The translations under genes and the position numbers were made by a program. From positions 1-11,205 of IMG/VR virus record IMGVR_UViG_2711768052_000003: a DNA stretch of 11,205 nt; one strand, 5' to 3'. Of this stretch, positions 1 through 11,205 are shown piece after piece; position 1 is the first letter of the stretch; the number at the start of each line of letters is the position of its first letter. This stretch comes from a virus (Duplodnaviria; Heunggongvirae; Uroviricota; Caudoviricetes). The notes below the pieces were generated by a model. That model saw nothing but the letters and a program-made list of their open reading frames with translations, was not told the origin of the DNA and made no database searches.

Positions 1-21
1 GTAAACCGAGGTTTTGGATAA
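1..21. other. Partial serine-invertase crossover site (gix/hix type), truncated by the window edge
   Basis: Positions 1-21 read GTAAACCGAGGTTTTGGATAA. This contains the half-site GGTTTTGGATAA and matches, as I recall it, the last 21 bp of the 26-bp Mu gixL site TTCCTGTAAACCGAGGTTTTGGATAA. It lies about 55 bp upstream of a Gin-family invertase gene, the usual position of the invertase-proximal site. Confidence 0.55.
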
Positions 22-75
22 TGGCCGTTTCCGGCCTGCATGGCATGATTTGCGCTTTTGGACGGGAGATTCAGC

Positions 76-675
76 GTGCTGATTGGCTATGTAAGGGTAT
101 CAACAAATGACCAGAATACAGACTTGCAACGAAACGCTCTTGTTTGTGCAGGATGCGAACAAATATTTGAAGATAAATTAAGCGGGACAAAGACAGACCG
201 ACCGGGATTAAAACGCGCTTTAAAGCGCCTTCAAAAAGGTGACACGCTGGTTGTCTGGAAACTGGATCGCCTCGGGCGAAGCATGAAACATCTGATTTCT
301 CTCGTCGGGGAACTACGGGAGCGAGGGATTAATTTTCGCAGTCTGACCGACAGCATAGATACATCTTCTCCAATGGGGCGTTTTTTCTTCCACGTGATGG
401 GTGCCCTGGCTGAAATGGAACGTGAATTAATTGTTGAACGTACACTGGCCGGACTGGCGGCAGCGCGCGCACGGGGGCGCACAGGCGGACGTCGACCGAA
501 GCTGACAAAAGAACAGCATGAGCAAATAGCAAGGCTAATCAAAAACGGGCACGACAGAAAACAACTGGCAATAATTTACGGCATTGGCACATCGACGATT
601 TATCGTTATCACCCTGTAGGCGATATACAGACTGAAGAAACAACCGGGCAGACTCAGGAAAATGAAAACCGCTAA
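76..675 (+). CDS. Site-specific serine DNA invertase, Gin/Pin/Hin/Cin family
   Basis: The translation MLIGYVRVSTNDQNTDLQRNAL...VVWKLDRLGRS...GINFRSLTDSIDTSS.MGRFFFHVMGALAEMERELI has the catalytic Ser at position 9, the resolvase/invertase core and a C-terminal HTH (IYGIGTSTIYRY). GGGAGA at 64-69 is a plausible RBS for GTG at 76. The track ORF begins at TTG 58, which I consider less likely. Confidence 0.9.
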   Translation: MLIGYVRVSTNDQNTDLQRNALVCAGCEQIFEDKLSGTKTDRPGLKRALKRLQKGDTLVVWKLDRLGRSMKHLISLVGELRERGINFRSLTDSIDTSSPMGRFFFHVMGALAEMERELIVERTLAGLAAARARGRTGGRRPKLTKEQHEQIARLIKNGHDRKQLAIIYGIGTSTIYRYHPVGDIQTEETTGQTQENENR

Positions 676-699
676 TCTGACCATTAGCGGTTTTTGTGT
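664..699. terminator. Bidirectional rho-independent terminator between the convergent invertase and gpU genes
   Basis: A 9-bp stem pairs ACCGCTAAT (668-676) with ATTAGCGGT (683-691) around the loop CTGACC. TTTTGTGT follows on the plus strand and an A-run (664-667) precedes it, giving a U-tract for the minus-strand transcript. It overlaps the invertase stop (673-675) and sits 5 bp from the gpU stop (704-706). Confidence 0.5.
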
Positions 700-703
700 A
701 AAA

Positions 704-1192
704 TCAGAACAGCCCTTTAACTGAACTGGCCGCGCTGTTAAGAGATGATGTCACCTTATCTTTGAAGCCGGACAGCATATCACTGAACGATGAGGATTGC
801 AGGCGCTCCCGCAAATCCTCATCACAGCGTTCAAGGGTCAGTGAAAATTCTATCTTTTTCGCCTTACCGTAGCGATCAAACTCGGAACGGGTCGTATTCG
901 TTTCAGTCAGCACATACATGCCGTAAATCTGCCCGACGCCATCAATCAGAGGCCAGGGTCGTCCTGTATACGCCTGCGTGGTCAGCAGCGACAGCGATAC
1001 TTCGCCACCTGTAATTTCAGGATAAAGCACACCAGAAAGAACGATGCGATCATCTCCTGCACCGATATACTGCCAGCTTGCTGAACGGTTAACGCGTTCA
1101 TTTTTCACATGCCGCCAGCTTTTGTTTTGCTGTAACTGCTGATGCGGCAGCGTGCGCAGCTCAAAAACAAACATGCCGTAGATCATCATCAT
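704..1192 (-). CDS. U: P2 gpU-like tail protein (tail terminator/completion)
   Basis: The translation MMMIYGMFVFELRTLPHQQL...WRH...VLSGVLYPEITGG...WPLIDGVGQIYGMYV fits the P2 gpU family pattern as I recall it. GAGGAG lies 8 nt upstream of ATG at 1192; the track start at 1198 would leave only a 2-nt spacer. Confidence 0.8.
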   Translation of the reverse strand: MMMIYGMFVFELRTLPHQQLQQNKSWRHVKNERVNRSASWQYIGAGDDRIVLSGVLYPEITGGEVSLSLLTTQAYTGRPWPLIDGVGQIYGMYVLTETNTTRSEFDRYGKAKKIEFSLTLERCDEDLRERLQSSSFSDMLSGFKDKVTSSLNSAASSVKGLF

Positions 1193-1204
1193 GGCCATGA
1201 CTCC

Positions 1205-4048
1205 TCAATCTTTATCGTAAAAACTGCCACGCCCGGCACGGGCGCGCCGTTCCATTTCTGCCCTGACCATTTCACCTACCAGTTTCGCAAGTTCGCGGGG
1301 ATTCTGCGTAACAACGTTATGCAGATGAACATGAATTTCACCGCCAAATCCGGAGGCAACCGGCTCCCGATTACGGGAAGCTGCAGGAACTGATGCCACT
1401 GGCGATCGTATGGCCTCCGCCACCGGGCGGGAGCTGGCCGCAACAACAGGGACCAGCGCCGGAGGCAGCGGAGCCGGGACCACGGGTGTGATATTAATTG
1501 CGGGGGCAGGCTTACTGACCTGCGCAATCTTCCGCTCCTGCCACTCCCCACGAACGGCAAGTGCGCGGGGCAGGTTCTTAAAGACAATATCGCCGGGGCC
1601 AATGCGTTTTTTCGTCTCATCAACCAGCTTACCTGTGTTATCAGCAATTTTGCTGAGTCTGCGCAGCGTACCGGTATTGCTGTCTGTGAGCGGTTTATTG
1701 TCTTTGGGGTTATCACCTCCGGTACCATTGCCATTTTCCACAGGCTTCGGCGGATTGATTTTCGCCAGGTCCCCCTGAAGCAAGGCAACCTTGTCCTGAA
1801 GAATGGCCGCACGCTGTGCGTCTTCGATTTTCTTGCGCGCCCTTTCCGCTTCATCCGGAAGGACGCCAAGTTTTTCAAGTATCCACGCCAGCGTATCCAG
1901 CAGCATTTTTGCAGGTGTCAGAACAAGCTGTAACGCACCGCCAAGAACGTTACCGAATATCTCGCCAGCACTGGTACATTTATCCAGCGTTTCCTTGCTG
2001 GACTCCATCGGTGACAGCAGCGATTTAAACCAGTTAAACACCTGGCTGATCCCGCTCCCGATTGCGTCAAAAACAGGACCAAACCGTTCAAAAGTTTCGC
2101 GCAACGGGGTCAGCCTTTCCATAATCCCGCTGAACACCCCGGCAAAAAATGCCCTGATGGGATCCCAGTATTTCCAGATAAGAACGGCAGCTCCGGCAAG
2201 CGCAGCCACGATAAGACCAACCGGACTGAACAACGCCCCGATAGCGCCTCCCAGCAAAGAAACGGACCCCGTCACCATTCCCCATAGTGCTGGCAGGACC
2301 CTGACAGCATTCATTGATCCGGTCAGGAGAGAAAAACCAAGACGCAGTTTTGCCAGCGGACCAGCAAGCACACCAATAGCCAGCGACAACGAGCCAACCG
2401 TTGCAGTCATTGCCAGCAACGCACCGCCTGCTATCAGTAGCTGGCGCGTCAGTGCCGGATGGGCCTGCGCCAGCGCCGTCACCCTTGATACCACCCGCGT
2501 GAGCCACTGCGTGACAGAACGCAGCGAACCGTCAATCAGATCTGCAATGCGGATGCGCAACCCTTCCCATGCACTGCCGAGTGATTTCAGATCGCCGTCA
2601 AGGTTGTTGGCCATAACCTTTGCTGTGCGTTCAGCCTCACCGCGCGCGCCTTCAAGTTCTTTTCTCAGTTTGGGTAAGGAACCGTCACCCGCTGCATCAA
2701 CGAGCGCCATAAACGATGTGAAAGCCTCTTCTCCGGCAATGTCCTTAAAGAACGATACCCGGTCAACTTCCCCGTATTTGCGGGTGGCTTTATAAAGGTC
2801 GGCCAGCACATCCTCCATCGGGCGCATTTTGCCCCCGGCATCCGAGACGGACACGCCCAGCTCTTTCAGAGCTTCTGCCGCCGCCTTTGGCGGTGATGCC
2901 AGACGAGCCAGGCTGGCACGCATTGCCGTCCCGGCATCACTCCCTCTGATGCCCATATTCGCCAGCACGCCAGCCATCGCTGCGGCCTGCTCCAGCGATA
3001 TTCCCAGCTTCCCCGCCACCGGACCTGCATATTTCATGGTTTCGCCCAGTGCGCGAAGGTCAGTGTTGGTACGGGTAAACGCTGCGGTGAGTGTGTCACC
3101 GACCCGGTCCATCTGGTCAGCAGAAAGGCCGAACTGCGTCAGGATATTTGAGCCAATATCTGCCGTCTCGCCGAGATCCATACCGCCAGCCGTTGCCATG
3201 CTCAGCACGCCGGGAAGCGCAGCCTGAATGGCCTGCGGAGTGAAGCCAGCCATTGCAAGAAATGCCTGTCCACTGGCGGCATCGCCTGCGGTGAACTGCG
3301 TTTCAGAGCCAAGTTTTAACGCCTGCTCGCGCAGCGCTTTAAACTGCGGGCTGTTCTGGTCGATTCGCGTCAGTGCCTGAACGCGGGACATCTCTTTGCC
3401 GAACCCGATCGCAGGCTGCAAAAAACGCCCGGCAGCATAGCCGCCCGCCGCTGCCGCACCAATTGCCAGCGCACCACCTGTTTTCAGTTTTTCCGCTGTT
3501 TCCTGCGCGCGCGAATACCGCTCACGCGCCCGCGTTACACGCGCAAGCGCCTGCCGTTCGCGTTCAAGCTGGTTGTTGTATTGTTCGGTGCGTCTGATGG
3601 CCTGCTGGATGGTGTTATCGCTGCCTGTCAGGGAAATGCCGTGGCGTTTCAGCTCTCCGCCAAGCTCCCGCATTTTCTGAATTTCCCGTGTGCGCGATTC
3701 ATTCAGGCGTTCAAGCCGGGTGCTTAACTGCTGCATCAGCTTTTGTTGTTTTTCGCTGAGCACTGTACCCGTGCGTTGTAACTGATTAAGGGCGTTAAGC
3801 TGGCGTCGTGCTTTCACGATACCCGCATCCGCTTTACTGACAGCGTCGCGGGCGCGCTCAAATGAACGCGCCTGACGCTCGAGATTTTTGATCGCCCCCT
3901 GCGTTCGCTGGATGGAGTCACCAAACTGCCCCATCAGGCGGCGTGCGTTTTCGGCAGGTCGGGTCAGCCTGTCAACGGCGCTGAAAGCGACCCGGATATC
4001 AAGAGTCTTCATTGTCTGCATTCCCGCTGCGAAGTGCCGCCCGCTCAC
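1205..4048 (-). CDS. T: Tail tape measure protein (P2 gpT-like)
   Basis: A 947-aa ORF with an Ala/Gly/Leu/Arg-rich, coiled-coil-like N-terminal half (repeated ERxRxA, QQL motifs) and a central hydrophobic segment sits between the E/E' chaperone genes and gpU. The start is uncertain: GTG at 4048, or ATG at 4021 or 4012. Confidence 0.8.
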   Translation of the reverse strand: MSGRHFAAGMQTMKTLDIRVAFSAVDRLTRPAENARRLMGQFGDSIQRTQGAIKNLERQARSFERARDAVSKADAGIVKARRQLNALNQLQRTGTVLSEKQQKLMQQLSTRLERLNESRTREIQKMRELGGELKRHGISLTGSDNTIQQAIRRTEQYNNQLERERQALARVTRARERYSRAQETAEKLKTGGALAIGAAAAGGYAAGRFLQPAIGFGKEMSRVQALTRIDQNSPQFKALREQALKLGSETQFTAGDAASGQAFLAMAGFTPQAIQAALPGVLSMATAGGMDLGETADIGSNILTQFGLSADQMDRVGDTLTAAFTRTNTDLRALGETMKYAGPVAGKLGISLEQAAAMAGVLANMGIRGSDAGTAMRASLARLASPPKAAAEALKELGVSVSDAGGKMRPMEDVLADLYKATRKYGEVDRVSFFKDIAGEEAFTSFMALVDAAGDGSLPKLRKELEGARGEAERTAKVMANNLDGDLKSLGSAWEGLRIRIADLIDGSLRSVTQWLTRVVSRVTALAQAHPALTRQLLIAGGALLAMTATVGSLSLAIGVLAGPLAKLRLGFSLLTGSMNAVRVLPALWGMVTGSVSLLGGAIGALFSPVGLIVAALAGAAVLIWKYWDPIRAFFAGVFSGIMERLTPLRETFERFGPVFDAIGSGISQVFNWFKSLLSPMESSKETLDKCTSAGEIFGNVLGGALQLVLTPAKMLLDTLAWILEKLGVLPDEAERARKKIEDAQRAAILQDKVALLQGDLAKINPPKPVENGNGTGGDNPKDNKPLTDSNTGTLRRLSKIADNTGKLVDETKKRIGPGDIVFKNLPRALAVRGEWQERKIAQVSKPAPAINITPVVPAPLPPALVPVVAASSRPVAEAIRSPVASVPAASRNREPVASGFGGEIHVHLHNVVTQNPRELAKLVGEMVRAEMERRARAGRGSFYDKD

Positions 4049-4528
4049 GCCAGCTAACCACTTCGCCGGGCGTCATCATGAAGATTTCGGCGGGCGACCA
4101 GTTAAAAATAACGGCAATATCTGCCACAAAGTCTTCTATGTGCTCAAAGCACACAACCGTGATCAGGCTTCCGTCGCCTGTTCGTTCTTCCCGCCAGAGT
4201 CCGCACCGCTCAAAAAATTTACGGCAACCACACATAACTGAATAAAGTCACGGGATGCCATTTTTTTGATCGTCACTTCATCCAGTCGCGGTGATGTCAC
4301 GCGTGACAGCAGCGTAAACATGGATTCCGCTTTCAGACTCAGCACATCAGACAGCGACAAATCTCGCAGAGATCCAGCCTGCTCAATAGCCCCGGTGATC
4401 TCCACATACGTGATTTTTTCGCCGCTTCGCTCAATTGGTTGGGTAAGTTTTACGCCACGCTCACTGGTTTCTTTCACAGTGTCAGTAACTACCGTGTTTT
4501 CGGTATCGATGTTTTTCGTCTCTTTCAT
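3999..4528 (-). CDS. E+E' fusion chaperone made by programmed -1 frameshift (inferred)
   Basis: The minus-strand slippery heptamer TTTTTTG (plus coordinates 4217-4211) lies inside E. The -1 frame stays open from there to 3999 (track ORF 3999-4235 is in the -1 frame relative to E) and overlaps the T start, as in the P2 E/E' and lambda G/GT arrangements. Confidence 0.55.
4163..4528 (-). CDS. E: Tail assembly chaperone gpE-like (short product)
   Basis: A 121-aa ORF lies between FII and T, the position of P2 E. AAAGGAG sits 7 nt upstream of ATG at 4528. A TTTTTTG slippery heptamer lies 18 codons before its stop. Confidence 0.75.
   Translation of the reverse strand: MKETKNIDTENTVVTDTVKETSERGVKLTQPIERSGEKITYVEITGAIEQAGSLRDLSLSDVLSLKAESMFTLLSRVTSPRLDEVTIKKMASRDFIQLCVVAVNFLSGADSGGKNEQATEA
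4211..4217 (-). other. T6G slippery heptamer for the E to E' -1 ribosomal frameshift
   Basis: The plus strand reads CAAAAAA at 4211-4217, which is TTTTTTG on the coding (minus) strand. Frame arithmetic places the downstream open frame at -1. Confidence 0.55.
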
Positions 4529-4582
4529 CAGGAAACTCCTTTCAGTCAGAGGCGACGCACTGCGCCGCCTGCATATTACTTA

Positions 4583-5095
4583 TCAGCCAAGCCCAAGCGC
4601 GGAACGGATGCGATCGGGCACAATGTCCTTGCCGTCCTTCCGGTAAATGAAGTTCAGCAGGTCAATCTCCCACAACGGGCGATCGTTAACACTCAGCTTG
4701 TAGTAGGTGTTTTTAATGGCATAAGTGTGTGATGTGGCTTCGCCCTGTTTGGCTTCCCCCATATCAATTTCCGTCACACGTCCGCGCATTTCGACTTCAT
4801 ACAGGTCGCTTTCTGCATCGGTGTAGTATTCACCCGCAAAACGCAGCAGTGTGCCGTCAATCGTGCCGCCATACTTAAGGAACAGCTCACGAACTGCGCC
4901 CCCCATGACAAAGCTCGCATCAAGCGCTGAGTCGTCCAGGCCGAGATCAATACTTACCGCCCCCATCATGCCACCACCCCGGTAGCTGTCGGTTTTGCGC
5001 GTCAGCTTAGGCAAAGTGACGGACGTCACCTTACCCACTTCGTTTTCACCATCCACAAACAGCGTAAAAAAGCGAAGATGTTTTGGCACAGCCAT
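4583..5095 (-). CDS. FII: Tail tube protein (P2 gpFII-like)
   Basis: A 170-aa ORF, MAVPKHLRFF...VTLPKLTRK...YRGGGM...IDLGLDD...LRFAGEY...VEMRGR...EIDMGE, has the size and motifs of the FII tube family. GGGAGG RBS precedes it, and its ATG overlaps the FI stop as TGATG (plus 5093-5097). Confidence 0.9.
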   Translation of the reverse strand: MAVPKHLRFFTLFVDGENEVGKVTSVTLPKLTRKTDSYRGGGMMGAVSIDLGLDDSALDASFVMGGAVRELFLKYGGTIDGTLLRFAGEYYTDAESDLYEVEMRGRVTEIDMGEAKQGEATSHTYAIKNTYYKLSVNDRPLWEIDLLNFIYRKDGKDIVPDRIRSALGLG

Positions 5096-6279
5096 CAGGC
5101 ACCTCCCAGCACCGCAAATGCGGGTTCAAAGTATTCATCAGTAAACGTCTGGTAAAGCTCCATGTCTTCCAGTGGCGGAACGGGCGTATATTTGTAGCGA
5201 ATACGCACACGCCCCTGACGTAAATCCGTGGTGCTGTTATCCACCACGTCATACCAGCACTCCGCGCCAATCAGTTTCCCGGCAGTCACCAGTGAATCCA
5301 GTTTTGCCCTGATGGCGCTGATAACATCCTTCACGTTCGCAGGCGTCAGTGGACTGTCGATGGTTTCAAACTGCGCTTCCGCAATTGAATCAGCCAGCAC
5401 CTGTGCGGTTCGGGTATACACCTCAAAAATGTAGGCGTTCGTTTCCGGTGTGCGGTTGCCCCAGAAGCGGAACCCGTTGCGACGAATAATGGTCGTGATT
5501 TCTTTGTTGTTGAGGCTGTTGGCATCGCTGTCTTCGGCCTGCAACGACCAGAACACATGCCTCGACATCCCCAGCACATTTTTAACCGGAACGTTGGACA
5601 GCGATTTGTGCCAGCCCTGCTCATGGTCAATGTACGCACGAAGGCCGCACGCATAAGCAGGCGCGGGGAACGTTTCGTTTTCGCCACTTTTCGGGTTGTA
5701 GGCGATGAAGTCCGGCCATAAGAGCATCACTTCACGTTCGTTGAATTTCTGGCGGTAGGTAATCGCTTCAGCCATCGTGTTACAGCCGTGACATGAGGCA
5801 TACACAAATGCGCGCAGTTTACCCGCAATCACGCACAGGGATTTTGTCACCGCCTCCGTGTCCAGCTCCGGCGCGGCCAGAATACGCGGACGGTATCCGA
5901 TGCTTTCATCCTGCTCTGCAACAAGCAGCGCATACATCCCCGTATAGCTGCCGTCATCCTCAGAACCACCGATAACCAGTTGATCCTGCGTCTTTTCGTC
6001 TTCTTCTTTGTGTTCAGCCACGCGAACGACGATCACCTTTGTGCTCACCTGGTCTGCGATGGCCTTAAGCGCACGATAAAGCGTCCCCGTTGTTCCGCAT
6101 TTTCCCAGCACGTCATTGACGCGGGTCAGCAGTGTGGGCTTGTTCAGCGGGAACAGCTTCGCGTCCGCATCATCCGCCGTTGCCACGATACCGATAACGC
6201 TGGAATCAACATCGTTAATCGCTGTTACCAGGTCGGTATTTTCCGTAACACGGGCACCATGAAAACGAGTTTCACTCAT
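5095..6279 (-). CDS. FI: Contractile tail sheath protein (P2 gpFI-like)
   Basis: A 394-aa ORF has motifs that match P2 FI as I recall it: FPLNKP, LRAFVYAS, WPDF, EQGWHKSLSNV, IRRNGFRFWGNRT, YTRTAQV and YKYTPVPPLE. AAGGGG RBS lies 8 nt upstream of ATG at 6279. Confidence 0.9.
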   Translation of the reverse strand: MSETRFHGARVTENTDLVTAINDVDSSVIGIVATADDADAKLFPLNKPTLLTRVNDVLGKCGTTGTLYRALKAIADQVSTKVIVVRVAEHKEEDEKTQDQLVIGGSEDDGSYTGMYALLVAEQDESIGYRPRILAAPELDTEAVTKSLCVIAGKLRAFVYASCHGCNTMAEAITYRQKFNEREVMLLWPDFIAYNPKSGENETFPAPAYACGLRAYIDHEQGWHKSLSNVPVKNVLGMSRHVFWSLQAEDSDANSLNNKEITTIIRRNGFRFWGNRTPETNAYIFEVYTRTAQVLADSIAEAQFETIDSPLTPANVKDVISAIRAKLDSLVTAGKLIGAECWYDVVDNSTTDLRQGRVRIRYKYTPVPPLEDMELYQTFTDEYFEPAFAVLGGA

Positions 6280-6436
6280 AGCTTCAGCCCCTTGTATCCG
6301 TTAAATGATTCGGCAACAATCATCACCCACCACGCGCGTAATCTCACCCCTGCGCCGTTCTCCCGCCACGGCGACAACAAAAAGCAGTAACCCCCTCCGC
6401 ACGCACATGCGACCATGCCACACAGGGAGGGAGCAG

Positions 6437-7546
6437 ATGACCGACACCACCATGCAATTGCTCAGTCAGGGCACAGACCCCGTGAAAATGCCGGATTTTG
6501 ATATTCTCGCCGAGGGTAAAACGCTGTCCGGCGTGGCAGAACGCCTGATGAGCCTGTCACTGACCGACAACCGGGGATTTGAGGCGGACCAGCTCACCAT
6601 CACGCTGGATGATGCCGATGGCCAGTTGCAGCTACCGCCACGGGGCGCGCGTCTGACGGTTCTCATTGGCTGGAAAGGGGAACCGCTGACAGAAAAAGGC
6701 ACTTACATTGTTGATGAAATCGCTCACGAAGGACCGCCGGACAGGCTGACTGTTTCAGCCAGAAGCGCAGATTTTCGGGATGAATTTAACGTTAAACGTG
6801 AGGTGTCCTGGCATGATGTGACCGTTGAGCGTGTGGTATCCGCCATCGCTCATCGGTATGGTCTGAAACCGCAAATCAGCGAAATGCTGATGGATATCGA
6901 AATCGACCACGCCGACCAGACCGAAGAAAGCGACATGTCCTTCCTTACGCGCATGGCGGAAATGCTGGGCGCAATCACCACGGTAAAAAGCGGTAATCTG
7001 TTATTCATCATGCCCGGAGGTGGCGTGAACGCGCAGGGCCAGCCGTTGCCCTCGTTCGCCATCACACGCAGCAGCGGCGATCGCCATCAGTTCCGCATTG
7101 CTGACCGCGAGGCGTATACGGGTGTACGCGCCTACTGGCTTGATCTTAATTACGGGAAAAAGAAAAAAGTCAGCGTGAAACGCCGCAAACCGCCAAAACC
7201 CAAAAAGGAGAAAAGCAGCAGCCGCGAAGGTGACTATATGGAAGGTGCGGAAGGCAACGTATTTGTGTTACGCAAGACTTATCAGAACGAGCAGGCAGCA
7301 AGACGCGCAGCGGCGGCAAAGTGGCAGCAGCTACAACGCGGAGCCGCATCATTTTCCATCACGCTGGCACGTGGACGCGCAGAACTCTACCCCGAAATGC
7401 ATGGCACGGTAACAGGATTTAAAAGCGAGATTGATAATCAGGACTGGATTATTGCAAAAGCCGAGCACACCATTGATAACAGCGGCTTTACCACGCAGCT
7501 TGAGCTTGAGGCAAAAATCCCGGAATGGATAGCAGAAACAGAGTGA
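6437..7546 (+). CDS. D: P2 gpD-like tail/baseplate hub protein (late control gene D family)
   Basis: The translation MTDTTMQLL...SLSLTDNRGFEADQLTITLDDADG...RSADFR...SWHD...FLTRMAE...ITRSSGDRHQFRIADREAYTGV...KKKK...EGDYMEGAEGNVF...QRGAASFSITLARGRAELYPE...FTTQLELEA agrees closely with my recollection of P2 gpD. GGGAGGGA RBS lies at 6425-6432. The track ORF extends to 6305 but has no RBS-supported start there. Confidence 0.85.
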   Translation: MTDTTMQLLSQGTDPVKMPDFDILAEGKTLSGVAERLMSLSLTDNRGFEADQLTITLDDADGQLQLPPRGARLTVLIGWKGEPLTEKGTYIVDEIAHEGPPDRLTVSARSADFRDEFNVKREVSWHDVTVERVVSAIAHRYGLKPQISEMLMDIEIDHADQTEESDMSFLTRMAEMLGAITTVKSGNLLFIMPGGGVNAQGQPLPSFAITRSSGDRHQFRIADREAYTGVRAYWLDLNYGKKKKVSVKRRKPPKPKKEKSSSREGDYMEGAEGNVFVLRKTYQNEQAARRAAAAKWQQLQRGAASFSITLARGRAELYPEMHGTVTGFKSEIDNQDWIIAKAEHTIDNSGFTTQLELEAKIPEWIAETE

Positions 7547-7934
7547 GCAATTTTGATACATTAGATTAAACATGGGCGCAACACTTACGACACAGAGTAA
7601 ACCTGATCTGCCAGTCACTTCTGCACCAAGAGCGAAAATTTATGACAGCGCTATGTGTTTATCTCCCCGAAAAGCTCAGTCAAATAGTAATTTGTCAAAT
7701 CCCCACTCAGTATCAATAGAGATAGTTGACCGAGTGTGCTCAAAGCCATACCTGCCACGATGAGCTTTGCATAACAGACTTGTTTTTTTAGGTGATTTTC
7801 GTTATAAATTTTCAGCGTTGCTTAGATGTTATGTGTTTATGCTCAATATGCAAATTTTGAGTTTTTTGTGGCTATATTATAACATTAATAGCAACATCTC
7901 TATGATTGCTTTATTTAAATGGATGAATTTGAAA

Positions 7935-10037
7935 ATGAGAGCATATCATAATGACCAACCTATACTAGGCGGTCAAAATGATCCAGACTTACTAAATAGA
8001 CTTACCTTTGCAAATAATTTGGCAAATATTTTACTATTAAATAACGACGATGATTGTTTCACTGTATCTATAGAGGCTGAGTGGGGATATGGTAAAACGT
8101 CAGTCATAAATCTTATAAAAAATGCCTTAAATGAAAAGGACTCCTTACCCATTATAATAGAATATAATCCATGGTTGGCTGGCCAACCTGAATCCTTGAT
8201 TCAAGATTTTTTATTGCAGTTTTCTTCACAACTAAATATTAAAGACAAATCAAAAGTTGCATTAAAAGTATCAAAAGAGCTAATTGCATACTCTAGCCTC
8301 TTTAGTGCTGCTAAACTTATCCCTGGAGCAGAACCATGGGCATCTATCATAGAAAAATCTCTTTCAAGATTTGGACATGCTACTAAAAAAATAGCTGAGT
8401 TAAAAAAACTTGATCTTTTAGATAGAAAAAAACAAGTGGCTAATGCGATAAAAAAAATAAAACATCCTATAATTGTAATAATTGATGACATTGATCGTTT
8501 AACACCCTCTGAGGCTTTTCAAGTTTTACGGTTAGTCAAAGCTGTTGCGAATTTCTCAGGCACTTCTTTTTTACTTGCATTTGATCCTAATTACCTAATT
8601 TCTGTGCTTGATAAAAATAACATTATAAATCCGTCAGAATATATTAATAAGATTGTTCAACTTCGAGTTTCACTTCCCGTAATTTCAGAAAGAGGACTGA
8701 ATGAAATCGCAAATTCAGAGCTTGAAAAACTAGGTGATAGTTTTTTAACTGATAAATTTGAAAAAGATCAAGAAAGATTAGATTGGATTTACCATAATTA
8801 TTTCAAGCAATTAATTAATAATCCAAGAGAGTTGAAAAGGTTTTTCAACCACTTGAGATTTACTTTAGAGCAAATTAAAGGTCAGGTGTGTTCTTCAGAT
8901 CTTTTTTCTTTATCTCTAATCGCAACCAAATCAAATTTAATTTATGAGCATATAAAGAATACTCCTGAAGCGTACATTGGGAATAGATTAACCATCAATA
9001 ATTTGTTAATGAATAAACATCAAGATATTATAAAGCATTATAGCCATGAACGATGCAATAAACTAAATATTTTTTCTCAACGAGAACGTACATTGATGCA
9101 GGGGCTATTAGAGTATATTTTCCCTCTTCTACGCCCCAATCAATCTTATCCTTATGATGTATCTGATTCAGATGCAGCAGGAAGAATTTCTGCCCCCCAA
9201 AGACTTCATATTGCCCTTCATTTTAAAACTCCAGTAGGATATATTTCCGATCATGACATTCTTCTTTTCATCGAAGGGAAAATTAATAGAGAAAAATTCC
9301 TTGAGGATGTGTTATCTCAAAATGCCGAGGAAAGATTTTTCGAAATGATGAATATTTATACAGACGCTTGTTGTAAAGTTGATAGTTTTAATATATTAAC
9401 GTGCATTTATGATAGATTTCTTTTCTCTCAAGAGTTAAAATCTTCATTAGAAAAAAACTATGGTCTCATTAGAGAAGATTCTTATAGAAGGATGTATTGG
9501 CTCACTGATAAAATTATATCTGAAAGTAGTGAGCAATATGAGCTAATAAAAAAAATTATTGGTCGATATGAGAATGCGCCACTTGGAGCAGAAGTACTAT
9601 ACAACGTACGAAACTCAAGTAATATACAGATTAATAAAGATCAGATTGTTGAACTTGAGAATGTCTTCAAAGAAACAGCTACTATTGCTTTAAATAAAAA
9701 AATATTTTTTGACTATCATCTAGAATCAAATATATTTTTCGAATTAAAGAGAATCTCTGTTGAATTCACATCAGAATTTCTTGCTTCCATCTTATCAGAA
9801 GATGGCATAATTAGATTGTGTGAAATTATTGGTGAAACTGGTAGAGATTCAACGAATGGCCCTTATGTTATTTTTGACGAACATTATTTTGGGGAAATAC
9901 TTGATGTAGATGAGGTTAGAAATAAAGCTAAAAACATAGATATTTCAAAGCATCCGACTCGCATTCAAGCTGTACTTAAGAGCATTGCAGATGGAAAAAA
10001 ATATTATTTAAGAGATGCAACAATTAGCTTAAAATAG
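7935..10037 (+). CDS. KAP-family P-loop NTPase; candidate anti-phage/exclusion protein
   Basis: Walker A is AEWGYGKTS (8082-8102), followed by the KAP-typical NPW (IIIEYNPW), Walker B IIVIIDDIDRL (8472-8501), LLAFD, and an NPRELKRFFN motif (8820-8849). About 300 C-terminal residues carry no motif I recognise. The gene is strongly AT-rich against GC-rich flanks. The start is ambiguous: in-frame ATGs at 7902, 7923 and 7935, none with a strong SD (GGA 9 nt before 7935); the track ORF begins at TTG 7767. Confidence 0.7.
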   Translation: MRAYHNDQPILGGQNDPDLLNRLTFANNLANILLLNNDDDCFTVSIEAEWGYGKTSVINLIKNALNEKDSLPIIIEYNPWLAGQPESLIQDFLLQFSSQLNIKDKSKVALKVSKELIAYSSLFSAAKLIPGAEPWASIIEKSLSRFGHATKKIAELKKLDLLDRKKQVANAIKKIKHPIIVIIDDIDRLTPSEAFQVLRLVKAVANFSGTSFLLAFDPNYLISVLDKNNIINPSEYINKIVQLRVSLPVISERGLNEIANSELEKLGDSFLTDKFEKDQERLDWIYHNYFKQLINNPRELKRFFNHLRFTLEQIKGQVCSSDLFSLSLIATKSNLIYEHIKNTPEAYIGNRLTINNLLMNKHQDIIKHYSHERCNKLNIFSQRERTLMQGLLEYIFPLLRPNQSYPYDVSDSDAAGRISAPQRLHIALHFKTPVGYISDHDILLFIEGKINREKFLEDVLSQNAEERFFEMMNIYTDACCKVDSFNILTCIYDRFLFSQELKSSLEKNYGLIREDSYRRMYWLTDKIISESSEQYELIKKIIGRYENAPLGAEVLYNVRNSSNIQINKDQIVELENVFKETATIALNKKIFFDYHLESNIFFELKRISVEFTSEFLASILSEDGIIRLCEIIGETGRDSTNGPYVIFDEHYFGEILDVDEVRNKAKNIDISKHPTRIQAVLKSIADGKKYYLRDATISLK

Positions 10038-10262
10038 TGATAACAGGTGATTTATTTTATTATTTGAAGTGATGAAATATACTCTTCACTACATTTAATG
10101 CACTGATTATCAAATAGAGATAGGTGTCGCATGAAAGAGACTATTGATGTGGCACCGGTAGTCTCATTTCCGACATTACTCCAGAAGAGGTGATTCGTTA
10201 TTAATAGATAATTTTAACCACTTCGCTAGACGTATCATTTTTCGTTTGTTGCTCAAAACTCA

Positions 10263-10291
10263 TTGGCAGTTAAAGTCTGAACCAGTACAAC
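10263..10291 (+). promoter_or_regulatory. Putative sigma70-type promoter for ogr
   Basis: TTGGCA (10263-10268), a 17-bp spacer, then TACAAC (10286-10291), about 40 bp upstream of the ogr ATG. This is a by-eye match only. Confidence 0.25.
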
Positions 10292-10328
10292 TTAGAATGG
10301 CACCAACATTACGTTAAGGGAGGTCGCT

Positions 10329-10589
10329 ATGTTCCGTTGTCCGCTTTGTGGCGCATCTGCCCGTATCCGCACCAGTCGTCCGGAAAATGATTCAAACACC
10401 GTGCGGCAAAAGTATTACCAGTGTAACAATCTGGAATGCGGCGTATGCTTCTCAACACTGGAAGCTTTCCATAAATTCACATCGAAACACGCCTCCGGCG
10501 TTCACTCTTCAGAAGGTATCCCGTGGCATGAGCTGCCAGCTTCACACAGGGGAAACAATCAGATGAGTTTGCCTTTGCCTCAGAATTAA
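10329..10589 (+). CDS. ogr: Ogr/Delta-family zinc-finger late transcription activator
   Basis: The N-terminus MFRCPLCGASARIRTSR...YYQCNNLECGVCFSTLE has the CxxC...CxxxxC arrangement and resembles P2 Ogr as I recall it (MFHCPLC...RTSR...YHQC.N..C...F). AAGGGAGG RBS lies at 10316-10323. Confidence 0.85.
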   Translation: MFRCPLCGASARIRTSRPENDSNTVRQKYYQCNNLECGVCFSTLEAFHKFTSKHASGVHSSEGIPWHELPASHRGNNQMSLPLPQN

Positions 10590-10649
10590 CAGGCAGAATT
10601 GCCGGAGCAACAAAAAAGCGATAGATTACGCGCGGGTGCCTTTCGGCTG

Positions 10650-10862
10650 ATGGTCGGAGGGAATACCCGAAGGCCAGATGTGGAAAGGCCCCGGAAAACA
10701 TCTCTGTTTAACCGAGGCCCTAACCGCATTACCTTGACAAGTGAAAGGTTAGCGCCTCTCCGGAAAAGGAGCAAGTGCTATGTCGCAAAAATCGCTTACG
10801 GCCATCACGTTCTGTGTGACGGCAATCCTCATCATCTGGATGTTGCACGGTTCGCTGTGTGA
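10650..10862 (+). CDS. Possible mok-like overlapping leader ORF of the hok locus
   Basis: A 70-codon frame from ATG 10650 overlaps the 5' two-thirds of the hok-like ORF in another frame and ends inside it, as mok does in hok/sok loci. It has no strong SD, and the track ORF begins at TTG 10599. Confidence 0.3.
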   Translation: MVGGNTRRPDVERPRKTSLFNRGPNRITLTSERLAPLRKRSKCYVAKIAYGHHVLCDGNPHHLDVARFAV

Positions 10863-10920
10863 AATACGGATGAGCTTCTGGGGAGCGGAGTTTGCGGCGT
10901 TCTTACAGTGTAAGCAGTAA
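10780..10920 (+). CDS. Hok/Gef-family type I toxin (small membrane peptide)
   Basis: A 46-aa ORF, MSQKSLTAITFCVTAILIIWMLHGSLCEIRMSFWGAEFAAFLQCKQ, has an N-terminal hydrophobic helix and the SLCEIR...E.AAF motif, which aligns without gaps to Hok (…[21 protein letters not shown]…) and HokA as I recall them. AAAGGAG RBS at 10765-10771. It is below the length cutoff of the supplied ORF track. Confidence 0.7.
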   Translation: MSQKSLTAITFCVTAILIIWMLHGSLCEIRMSFWGAEFAAFLQCKQ

Positions 10921-11008
10921 GGAAACCGCGACGGGGGAGCTATCCCCCGTCAATCGGTTGCCAAGGTAGGGCCGGATAAGGCACCCTATCTCACAGATAT
11001 GAACAACA

Positions 11009-11041
11009 AACCCGCAGCGTAAAAACTGCGGGTTTTCTTTT
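11009..11041 (+). terminator. Rho-independent terminator, likely the 3' end of the hok-like transcript
   Basis: Stem ACCCGCAG (11009-11016), loop CGTAAAAA, stem CTGCGGGT (11025-11032), followed by TTTCTTTTT. Confidence 0.55.
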
Positions 11042-11205
11042 TGGTGCCCTCACCGACTTGAAACAGTGATCAGACTATAAGACAAAGCCCGCAATGTAGC
11101 GGGCTTACTCCCCTCACCCTACACTGAATGTGGACACACAGTGGAACGAAGAGGCATAAGATATTATAAATCAATCAGTTATTGAAAGAAAAAAGGCCGC
11201 AGAGC

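Follow-up and report, generated by a model that had tools for sequence, protein, structure and literature searches.

PifA of the F plasmid was among the first abortive-infection genes to be described, and it is the source of the "P" in the name of the KAP P-loop NTPases. The protein aborts T7 infection via membrane depolarisation and nucleotide leakage, with sensitivity set by T7 gp1.2 and gp10 (PMC13001434, PMC8594841), and it lacks the NTPase-associated transmembrane (TM) helices that most KAP proteins carry (PMC13001434). Other KAP proteins with unannotated C-terminal regions also defend against phage, and in these both the Walker B motif and the C-terminal region are required (PMC13552941). 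The P2/P4 hotspots are reservoirs of defence genes (PMC9122126, PMC13586616), among them "Reve", a single-gene KAP defence system from P4 hotspots (PMC13586616). Here we analysed a KAP gene carried on the 11,205 nucleotides of IMG/VR virus record IMGVR_UViG_2711768052_000003 (positions 1 to 11,205, a caudoviricete; hereafter the window). A sequence-only reading had singled out the 3' part of this gene (8850-10037) as encoding an unassigned domain, possibly an effector or a sensor, in which any novelty would reside. Profile comparisons identify most of this region as a diverged homologue of the C-terminal half of PifA.

The gene and its parts are as follows, with residues (aa, amino acids) counted from ATG 7902 of the 711-aa coding sequence, unless a longer 756-aa open reading frame (ORF) is named:

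7902-10037, plus strand: KAP-family, PifA-like P-loop NTPase gene (ORF; PGAP annotation of near-identical E. coli loci; Pfam; PADLOC)
8004-8864, plus strand: Pfam KAP_NTPase (PF07693) match, aa 35-321 (aa 80-366 of the 756-aa ORF)
8085-8102, plus strand: Walker A motif GYGKTS, aa 62-67 (sequence and regular expression)
8469-8495, plus strand: Walker B motif IIVIIDDID, aa 190-198 (sequence and regular expression)
8820-8849, plus strand: NPRELKRFFN motif, aa 307-316, aligned with PifA TPREIHQAIN
8850-8996, plus strand: helical part conserved between KAP proteins and PifA, the first ~49 aa of the flagged region, aa 317-365 (BLASTP, hhalign and AlphaFold2)
8997-10034, plus strand: C-terminal module (C-module), aa 366-711, predicted to be an all-alpha solenoid that ends in a small beta-sheet, homologue of the PifA C-half

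Homology of the C-module to PifA

The hidden Markov model (HMM) of the C-module matches F PifA colinearly over aa 555-737 (E=2.6e-10, 25.9 bits), against 5.0 bits for the best of 2000 shuffled PifA C-halves. Profile-profile comparison with hhalign gave a colinear alignment of the full-length family with PifA over PifA 22-737 (99.9%, E=2e-36), and the C-half profile alone aligned over 274 columns with the C-half of a 39-sequence PifA-family alignment (97.9%, E=5e-13), pairing RFFE with TWFEH and G.DS.NG.Y with SS..G.Y. PifA's own C-half has no Pfam model, and F pifA was absent from the plasmid matches that tblastn gave for the full KAP protein at E<=1e-5.

The C-module is thus real and without a curated model, yet it is a diverged counterpart of the PifA C-half and not a new module, because of this homology and its wide conservation, which includes an archaeon and a Bacillota species (see below). 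The expectation that the C-terminal region would hold the novelty of this protein was therefore not borne out.

Predicted fold and conserved motifs

When aa 362-711 were folded alone with AlphaFold2 (AF2) on a 77-sequence alignment, the model reached a predicted local distance difference test score (pLDDT) of 90.2 and a predicted template modelling score (pTM) of 0.81; it contains ~20 helices and, close to the C-terminus, a small sheet of three strands. The C-module is accordingly modelled as a compact HEAT/ARM-like alpha-solenoid capped by a small beta-sheet and predicted to fold autonomously. A Foldseek search of this model, the fold search that the sequence-only reading had proposed, returned no match in the PDB at E<=1e-3. 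The weak matches were designed helical repeats, 14-3-3 and ARM/TPR proteins; the fold resemblances are only HEAT/TOG/ARM-like, with no enzyme or pore-former among them. Sequence searches of the PDB gave only chance-level BasR and GFP for the single sequence (E>=0.16) and nothing at E<=0.1 for the family profile.

The domain was called unassigned, and this held: no Pfam, NCBIfam, PHROG or PADLOC model covers aa 366-711. Across the whole flagged region, which translates to 395 aa (8850-10034) and not to the ~300 first estimated, the Pfam, PADLOC, NCBIfam and PHROGs HMMs gave no significant match; the tail of the PifA HMM covers only its first 46 aa, and E_motif and Orthopox_F14 (E>=0.1) are noise. 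Conservation within the C-module centres on four motifs:

9177-9206, plus strand: conserved loop AGRISAPQRL, aa 426-435, with G427, R428, R434 and L435 at least 80% conserved in the wide family
9333-9350, plus strand: conserved RFFEMM motif, aa 478-483, aligned with PifA TWFEHIL
9840-9866, plus strand: conserved beta-hairpin motif GRDSTNGPY, aa 647-655, aligned with PifA SSHRGAY
9990-10016, plus strand: conserved C-terminal motif DGKKYYLRD, aa 697-705

The peaks lie at aa 387-461 (GR.SAPQRL, with RFFE just after), 637-661 (the G.DS.NGPY hairpin) and 687-711 (DGKKYYLRD), and conservation is lowest centrally, at aa 487-636. Positions at least 80% conserved in the diverse alignment are G, P, R, F, L, A, S, D and Y, and the wide alignment contains no catalytic-type invariant residues in the C-module. 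The short Cys- and His-bearing stretches noticed earlier (CNK, ACCKVD, TCIYD) are indeed present in the translation, as is NPRELKRFFN at 8820-8849. We considered a metal-binding site built from the scattered Cys and His and rejected it: since no Cys or His is at least 80% conserved in the wide alignment, these residues do not form a conserved metal or catalytic site. A TM or hydrophobic insert was likewise rejected, from hydropathy, for the window protein and PifA alike.

End of the NTPase unit

The N-terminal half is a clear KAP NTPase: the Pfam match scores 160.5 bits (cutoff 20; E=7.3e-47) over profile positions 3-289 of 293, and Walker A and Walker B are both intact. By BLASTP, aa 37-367 align with F-plasmid PifA 31-372 (25% identity, E=3e-20). 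The hhalign alignment of the window protein with PifA extends to aa 350, and the PADLOC PifA HMM (E=1.1e-64) matches only over profile positions 3-353 of 720, reaching aa 407 of the 756-aa ORF. The recognisable KAP motifs had been placed as ending around 8849; the Pfam match does end close by (~8864), but similarity to PifA and KAP proteins goes on for ~50 aa, to ~aa 365.

The AF2 model of the full-length protein (pLDDT 71) shows a five-stranded P-loop core with helices to ~aa 359, including helices at 308-324, 331-343 and 345-353, then a low-confidence linker at 362-371, beyond which the C-terminal part is far better predicted. Because PifA/KAP similarity runs to ~aa 365-367 (nucleotides ~8996-9002), aa 317-365 of the flagged region (8850-8996) complete the helical part of the NTPase unit, which PifA has too, and the separate C-module starts at ~aa 366 (nucleotide 8997). 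The possibility that the whole region is simply the standard helical part of a KAP domain thus holds for aa 317-365 and fails for aa 366-711, which form a separate module because they are predicted to fold alone and are absent from shorter KAP proteins (PDC-S20 profiles of ~450 positions).

The description of the region as soluble, with no TM signature, was confirmed: the protein has no TM segment, since the Kyte-Doolittle mean over 19 residues never exceeds 1.27 (1.24 within the module). With TM segments absent here as in PifA, the window protein belongs to the soluble PifA-like branch of KAP proteins.

Distribution and evolutionary rates

The full-length architecture of ~707 aa recurs at 63-76% identity in hundreds of gammaproteobacterial proteins, from Escherichia, Salmonella, Klebsiella, Serratia, Vibrio, Aeromonas, Shewanella and others. 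When 1.84 billion representative proteins were searched exhaustively with the C-module profile, 88 clusters matched. Where these are of approximately full length (about 660-770 aa), the C-module occupies the C-terminal half, typically at ~360-715. KAP_NTPase is present in 60 of the 61 alignment members that have an N-terminus (at least 460 aa), with no other non-P-loop domain. The C-module HMM also finds the module behind a KAP domain in a protein of the haloarchaeon Natribaculum (E=5e-31) and in one of the Bacillota member Salimicrobium (E=6e-19). The C-module is a fixed partner of PifA-like KAP NTPases without TM helices, in bacteria and archaea. A word-indexed search with the C-terminal part only had returned 28 close relatives; the tiny family that this implied was overturned by the full-length and exhaustive searches.

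The two halves of the protein change at different rates. Against the 74%-identical paralogue L002, the KAP core (aa 12-321) has a nonsynonymous rate (dN) of 0.081 and a synonymous rate (dS) of 0.85, whereas the C-module (aa 366-711) has dN 0.225 and dS 0.71; mean identity to 37 full-length relatives is 80% and 53%, respectively. The C-module thus changes ~2.8 times faster than the KAP NTPase, with both halves under purifying selection. In immune NTPases the faster-evolving part is typically the one that determines specificity, and the faster change of the C-module points, only suggestively, to such a role.

Coding status and start codon

The flagged region is genuine coding sequence by its substitution pattern: it is under purifying selection because the proportion of nonsynonymous differences (pN) is 0.19 against 0.46 for synonymous ones (pS), relative to a 79.5%-identical paralogue. 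No alternative-frame ORF longer than 44 aa lies inside 8850-10037. The stop codon is at 10035-10037. PGAP calls the start at ATG 7902 (711 aa), in annotated E. coli loci of 98.6-99.2% identity. From ATG 7935 the protein has 700 aa and is 100% identical to the 700-aa database protein P0029, and homologues in other genera begin at the equivalent of this codon (MRAYHNDQP...), so that the conserved start is probably ATG 7935. Either ATG is a more likely true start than the TTG that opens the 756-aa ORF. The first 45-56 codons of that ORF (extension at window 7767-7934) look hydrophobic and are not conserved; the extension is probably AT-rich non-coding promoter sequence and not a signal or TM segment. 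Scans for promoters and terminators around the gene gave counts not above shuffled expectation, and the flanking intergenic regions contain no plausible small partner ORF.

Prophage setting

In the window we see the tail end of an E. coli prophage that is P2-like (P88/Xuanwuvirus-type), with the following features around the KAP gene:

58-675, plus strand: serine invertase, Hin/Gin-type
704-6279, minus strand: gpU, tape measure, E/E', tail tube and sheath
6305-7546, plus strand: gpD
7572-10300, no strand assigned: low-GC (guanine-cytosine content) single-gene cargo islet between gpD and ogr, with approximate boundaries (GC profile, phage similarity, annotation)
10329-10589, plus strand: ogr
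10780-10920, plus strand: hok/gef toxin gene, a 46-aa type I toxin ORF just downstream of ogr, near the prophage end

GC content falls from ~0.55 to ~0.31 between ~7570 and 10300, and similarity to sequenced P2-like phages ends at ~7571. For these reasons the KAP gene is a lone, horizontally acquired cargo between gpD and ogr. The exact locus occurs in 3 of 5,426 complete E. coli genomes. Other E. coli genomes carry the 79.5%-identical paralogue, which in strain CT29, the one locus examined, sits in the classical P2 GpA-GpQ hotspot. A Serratia homologue likewise lies in the GpA-GpQ hotspot of a P2-like prophage, and one of Vibrio parahaemolyticus lies in a small variable chromosomal islet beside Imm49 and YcxB genes. 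Directly upstream of the Serratia homologue is a conserved 215-aa gene (L008 6820-7467, L009 302-949), absent from the window and with no Pfam or PADLOC match, which could be either a separate cargo or an optional partner.

Phage P88 has no annotated gene in its gpD-ogr slot. Phage 500465-2 carries a different gene there (L014 4168-5190, minus strand), encoding a 340-aa hypothetical protein with a sub-threshold RiboL-PSP HEPN match (E=1.2e-4) and no PADLOC match. Together these loci suggest that P88-type P2-like prophages use the junction of gpD and ogr as a slot for variable cargo, possibly related to defence.

Two further observations concern the prophage itself. Tail genes and gpD are co-oriented in classical P2; in the window the tail block (58-6279 side) lies on the strand opposite gpD and ogr, beside the serine invertase. 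Because P88 and 500465-2 show the same divergent sheath/gpD layout, it appears to be the usual arrangement in this phage group and not one that arose locally. The Hok/Gef ORF is annotated alike in E. coli AST81 and in phages P88 and 500465-2.

Possible role of the C-module

We consider it fairly probable that the window protein is a prophage paralogue of PifA acting as a single-protein abortive-infection switch, with the C-module as its trigger-recognition or regulatory domain. This reading draws on the full-length PifA homology, on a scaffold-like and faster-evolving C-module, and on the lack of any sign of an enzyme or of a membrane-spanning segment. The part of the C-module would be to recognise a phage protein, or to keep the KAP NTPase off; the NTPase would turn recognition into an NTP-dependent conformational or oligomeric change; and the outcome may be a PifA-like membrane permeabilisation, with loss of the infected cell. 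As for the choice between effector and sensor, the module is a separate one of ~345 aa, and the evidence leans towards a sensor or scaffold, given that the fold matches are only HEAT/TOG/ARM-like, that no enzyme and no catalytic-type residues are found, and that it evolves faster.

Several points weigh against this reading. The C-half similarity to PifA is seen at the profile level only: the PADLOC PifA HMM fails to align to the C-module, a narrow PifA-family C-half HMM is marginal against the single window sequence (E=0.034), and the first ~70 columns of the C-module, where homology is weakest, fall outside the significant hhalign core. On F the pifC repressor gene precedes pifA, and no pifC-like ORF lies near the window gene. 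Searched by tblastn, 50,697 sequenced phage records contained no match to the C-module, so that the annotation of prophages is the basis of its tie to active phages. The faster evolution and scaffold-like fold of the C-module equally fit a regulatory or oligomerisation domain. Homology to the PifA C-half transfers no mechanism to the C-module.

The C-module could instead be an effector that damages the cell after NTPase activation, for example by associating with the inner membrane and making it permeable or by sequestering a host factor that the cell needs. The trigger would then be sensed in another part of the protein, such as the helical insert that separates Walker A from Walker B. No other domain of PifA-type proteins is a candidate effector, and the conserved arginines R384, R428, R434, R463 and R478, in the most conserved patches, could bind phospholipid head groups or nucleotide. 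PifA makes membrane lesions without TM helices (PMC13001434), and an Enterococcus KAP protein loses defence on C-terminal deletion, a result that suits a sensor equally (PMC13552941). However, the module contains no hydrophobic or amphipathic TM-like segment, its fold matches include no enzyme or pore-former and its invariant residues are not of catalytic type, and its rate of change, ~2.8 times that of the NTPase, would be unusual in an effector directed at a conserved host target. We regard an effector role as unlikely.

It is quite improbable that aa 366-711 are no separate module at all, but a longer helical part that the NTPase fold has in this KAP subfamily, like the lid and winged-helix extensions in AAA+ and STAND ATPases, serving oligomerisation with no role in specificity; an oligomerisation function would agree with the scaffold-like fold, and the predicted autonomous folding of the region and its absence from shorter KAP proteins speak for a module of its own. 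A gene that is not anti-phage, a prophage moron acting in lysogen physiology or in plasmid or phage maintenance as suggested for PifA, is very improbable: the phage range of PifA is very narrow and doubt has been cast on its dedicated immunity role (PMC8594841, PMC13552941), the family has no known phenotype and the V. parahaemolyticus islet is not an obvious defence island, but that islet also holds the immunity-type gene Imm49, the window gene is a low-GC lone cargo, relatives recur in the P2 GpA-GpQ defence hotspot (PMC9122126, PMC13586616), and other KAP fusions (PMC13552941) and "Reve" (PMC13586616) defend experimentally.

Returning to the abortive-infection switch, a bolder version of it may be proposed, tentatively and with some doubt. 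The C-module would be an as yet unnamed bacterial-archaeal domain family ("PifA-C") serving soluble KAP NTPases as a phage-protein sensor; its variable central face would set trigger specificity, and the P2-prophage paralogue would detect a phage protein other than T7 gp1.2 or gp10. If so, the high-confidence model would offer a tractable route to the mechanism of Pif exclusion. As the PifA C-half module is common to widespread prophage and chromosomal proteins, the sensor hypothesis is testable, with natural paralogues for domain swaps. The value of these results is a handle on the unsolved Pif mechanism; no new kind of system is revealed.

Comparison with known systems

Among other KAP systems, QatA of QatABCD has the KAP NTPase core in common with the window protein, but the QatA model scores 43.5 bits against a cutoff of 600 and only around the P-loop, and the window gene has gpD and ogr, not qatBCD, as neighbours. 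The PADLOC PDC-S20 KAP proteins also possess the KAP core, and their profiles of ~450 positions stop shortly after the NTPase, with no C-module. Tmn/YobI-like proteins carry two TM helices inside the P-loop domain, whereas the window protein has none, and no Tmn model is among its PADLOC matches. EF_KAP and its metagenomic relatives resemble the window protein in that over 300 unannotated aa follow their KAP P-loop domain (PMC13552941); EF_KAP differs in its two predicted TM helices.

Further afield, the RdrA ATPase of RADAR (PDB 8fnu, 8fnt) is among the closest known systems. The logic proposed for the window protein would be that of the Avs STAND/NLR-like ATPases, a P-loop switch and then a C-terminal domain of helical repeats (in Avs the phage-protein binder), and as in the window protein this C-terminal part evolves faster than the NTPase. 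The Avs NTPase is of NACHT/NB-ARC type, whereas that of the window protein is KAP, with no NACHT/NB-ARC Pfam match up to E=1. The window protein also differs from Avs in having no separate N-terminal effector domain, and its repeats are not recognisable as TPR by sequence.

Two observations concern relatives of PifA. The pifC-pifA order is present on F and on a Klebsiella IncF plasmid, pKPN23_1 (L010 1771-7338), where a regulator gene of pifC size (1089 nt) is followed by the gene for a 728-aa PifA-like KAP protein; a NACHT-domain gene lies immediately downstream of the latter on the opposite strand, and the region has the look of a small defence cluster on the plasmid. P0235, 99% identical to F PifA, belongs to a 741-aa cluster of 2,596 member sequences that bears the NCBI name "exclusion suppressor FxsA". 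True FxsA, a suppressor of F exclusion, is a small membrane protein of the host, and its name on the PifA cluster looks like a propagated misannotation.

PifA itself resembles the window protein in length (741 vs 711 aa), in a homologous KAP N-half (25% identity), in the lack of TM helices by the hydropathy of both, and in a C-half that is without a Pfam model in either protein and colinear with the window C-module to the protein end, at profile level and with only ~11% identity. Both genes reside on mobile elements, that of PifA in the plasmid pif operon and that of the window alone in the gpD-ogr slot of a prophage.

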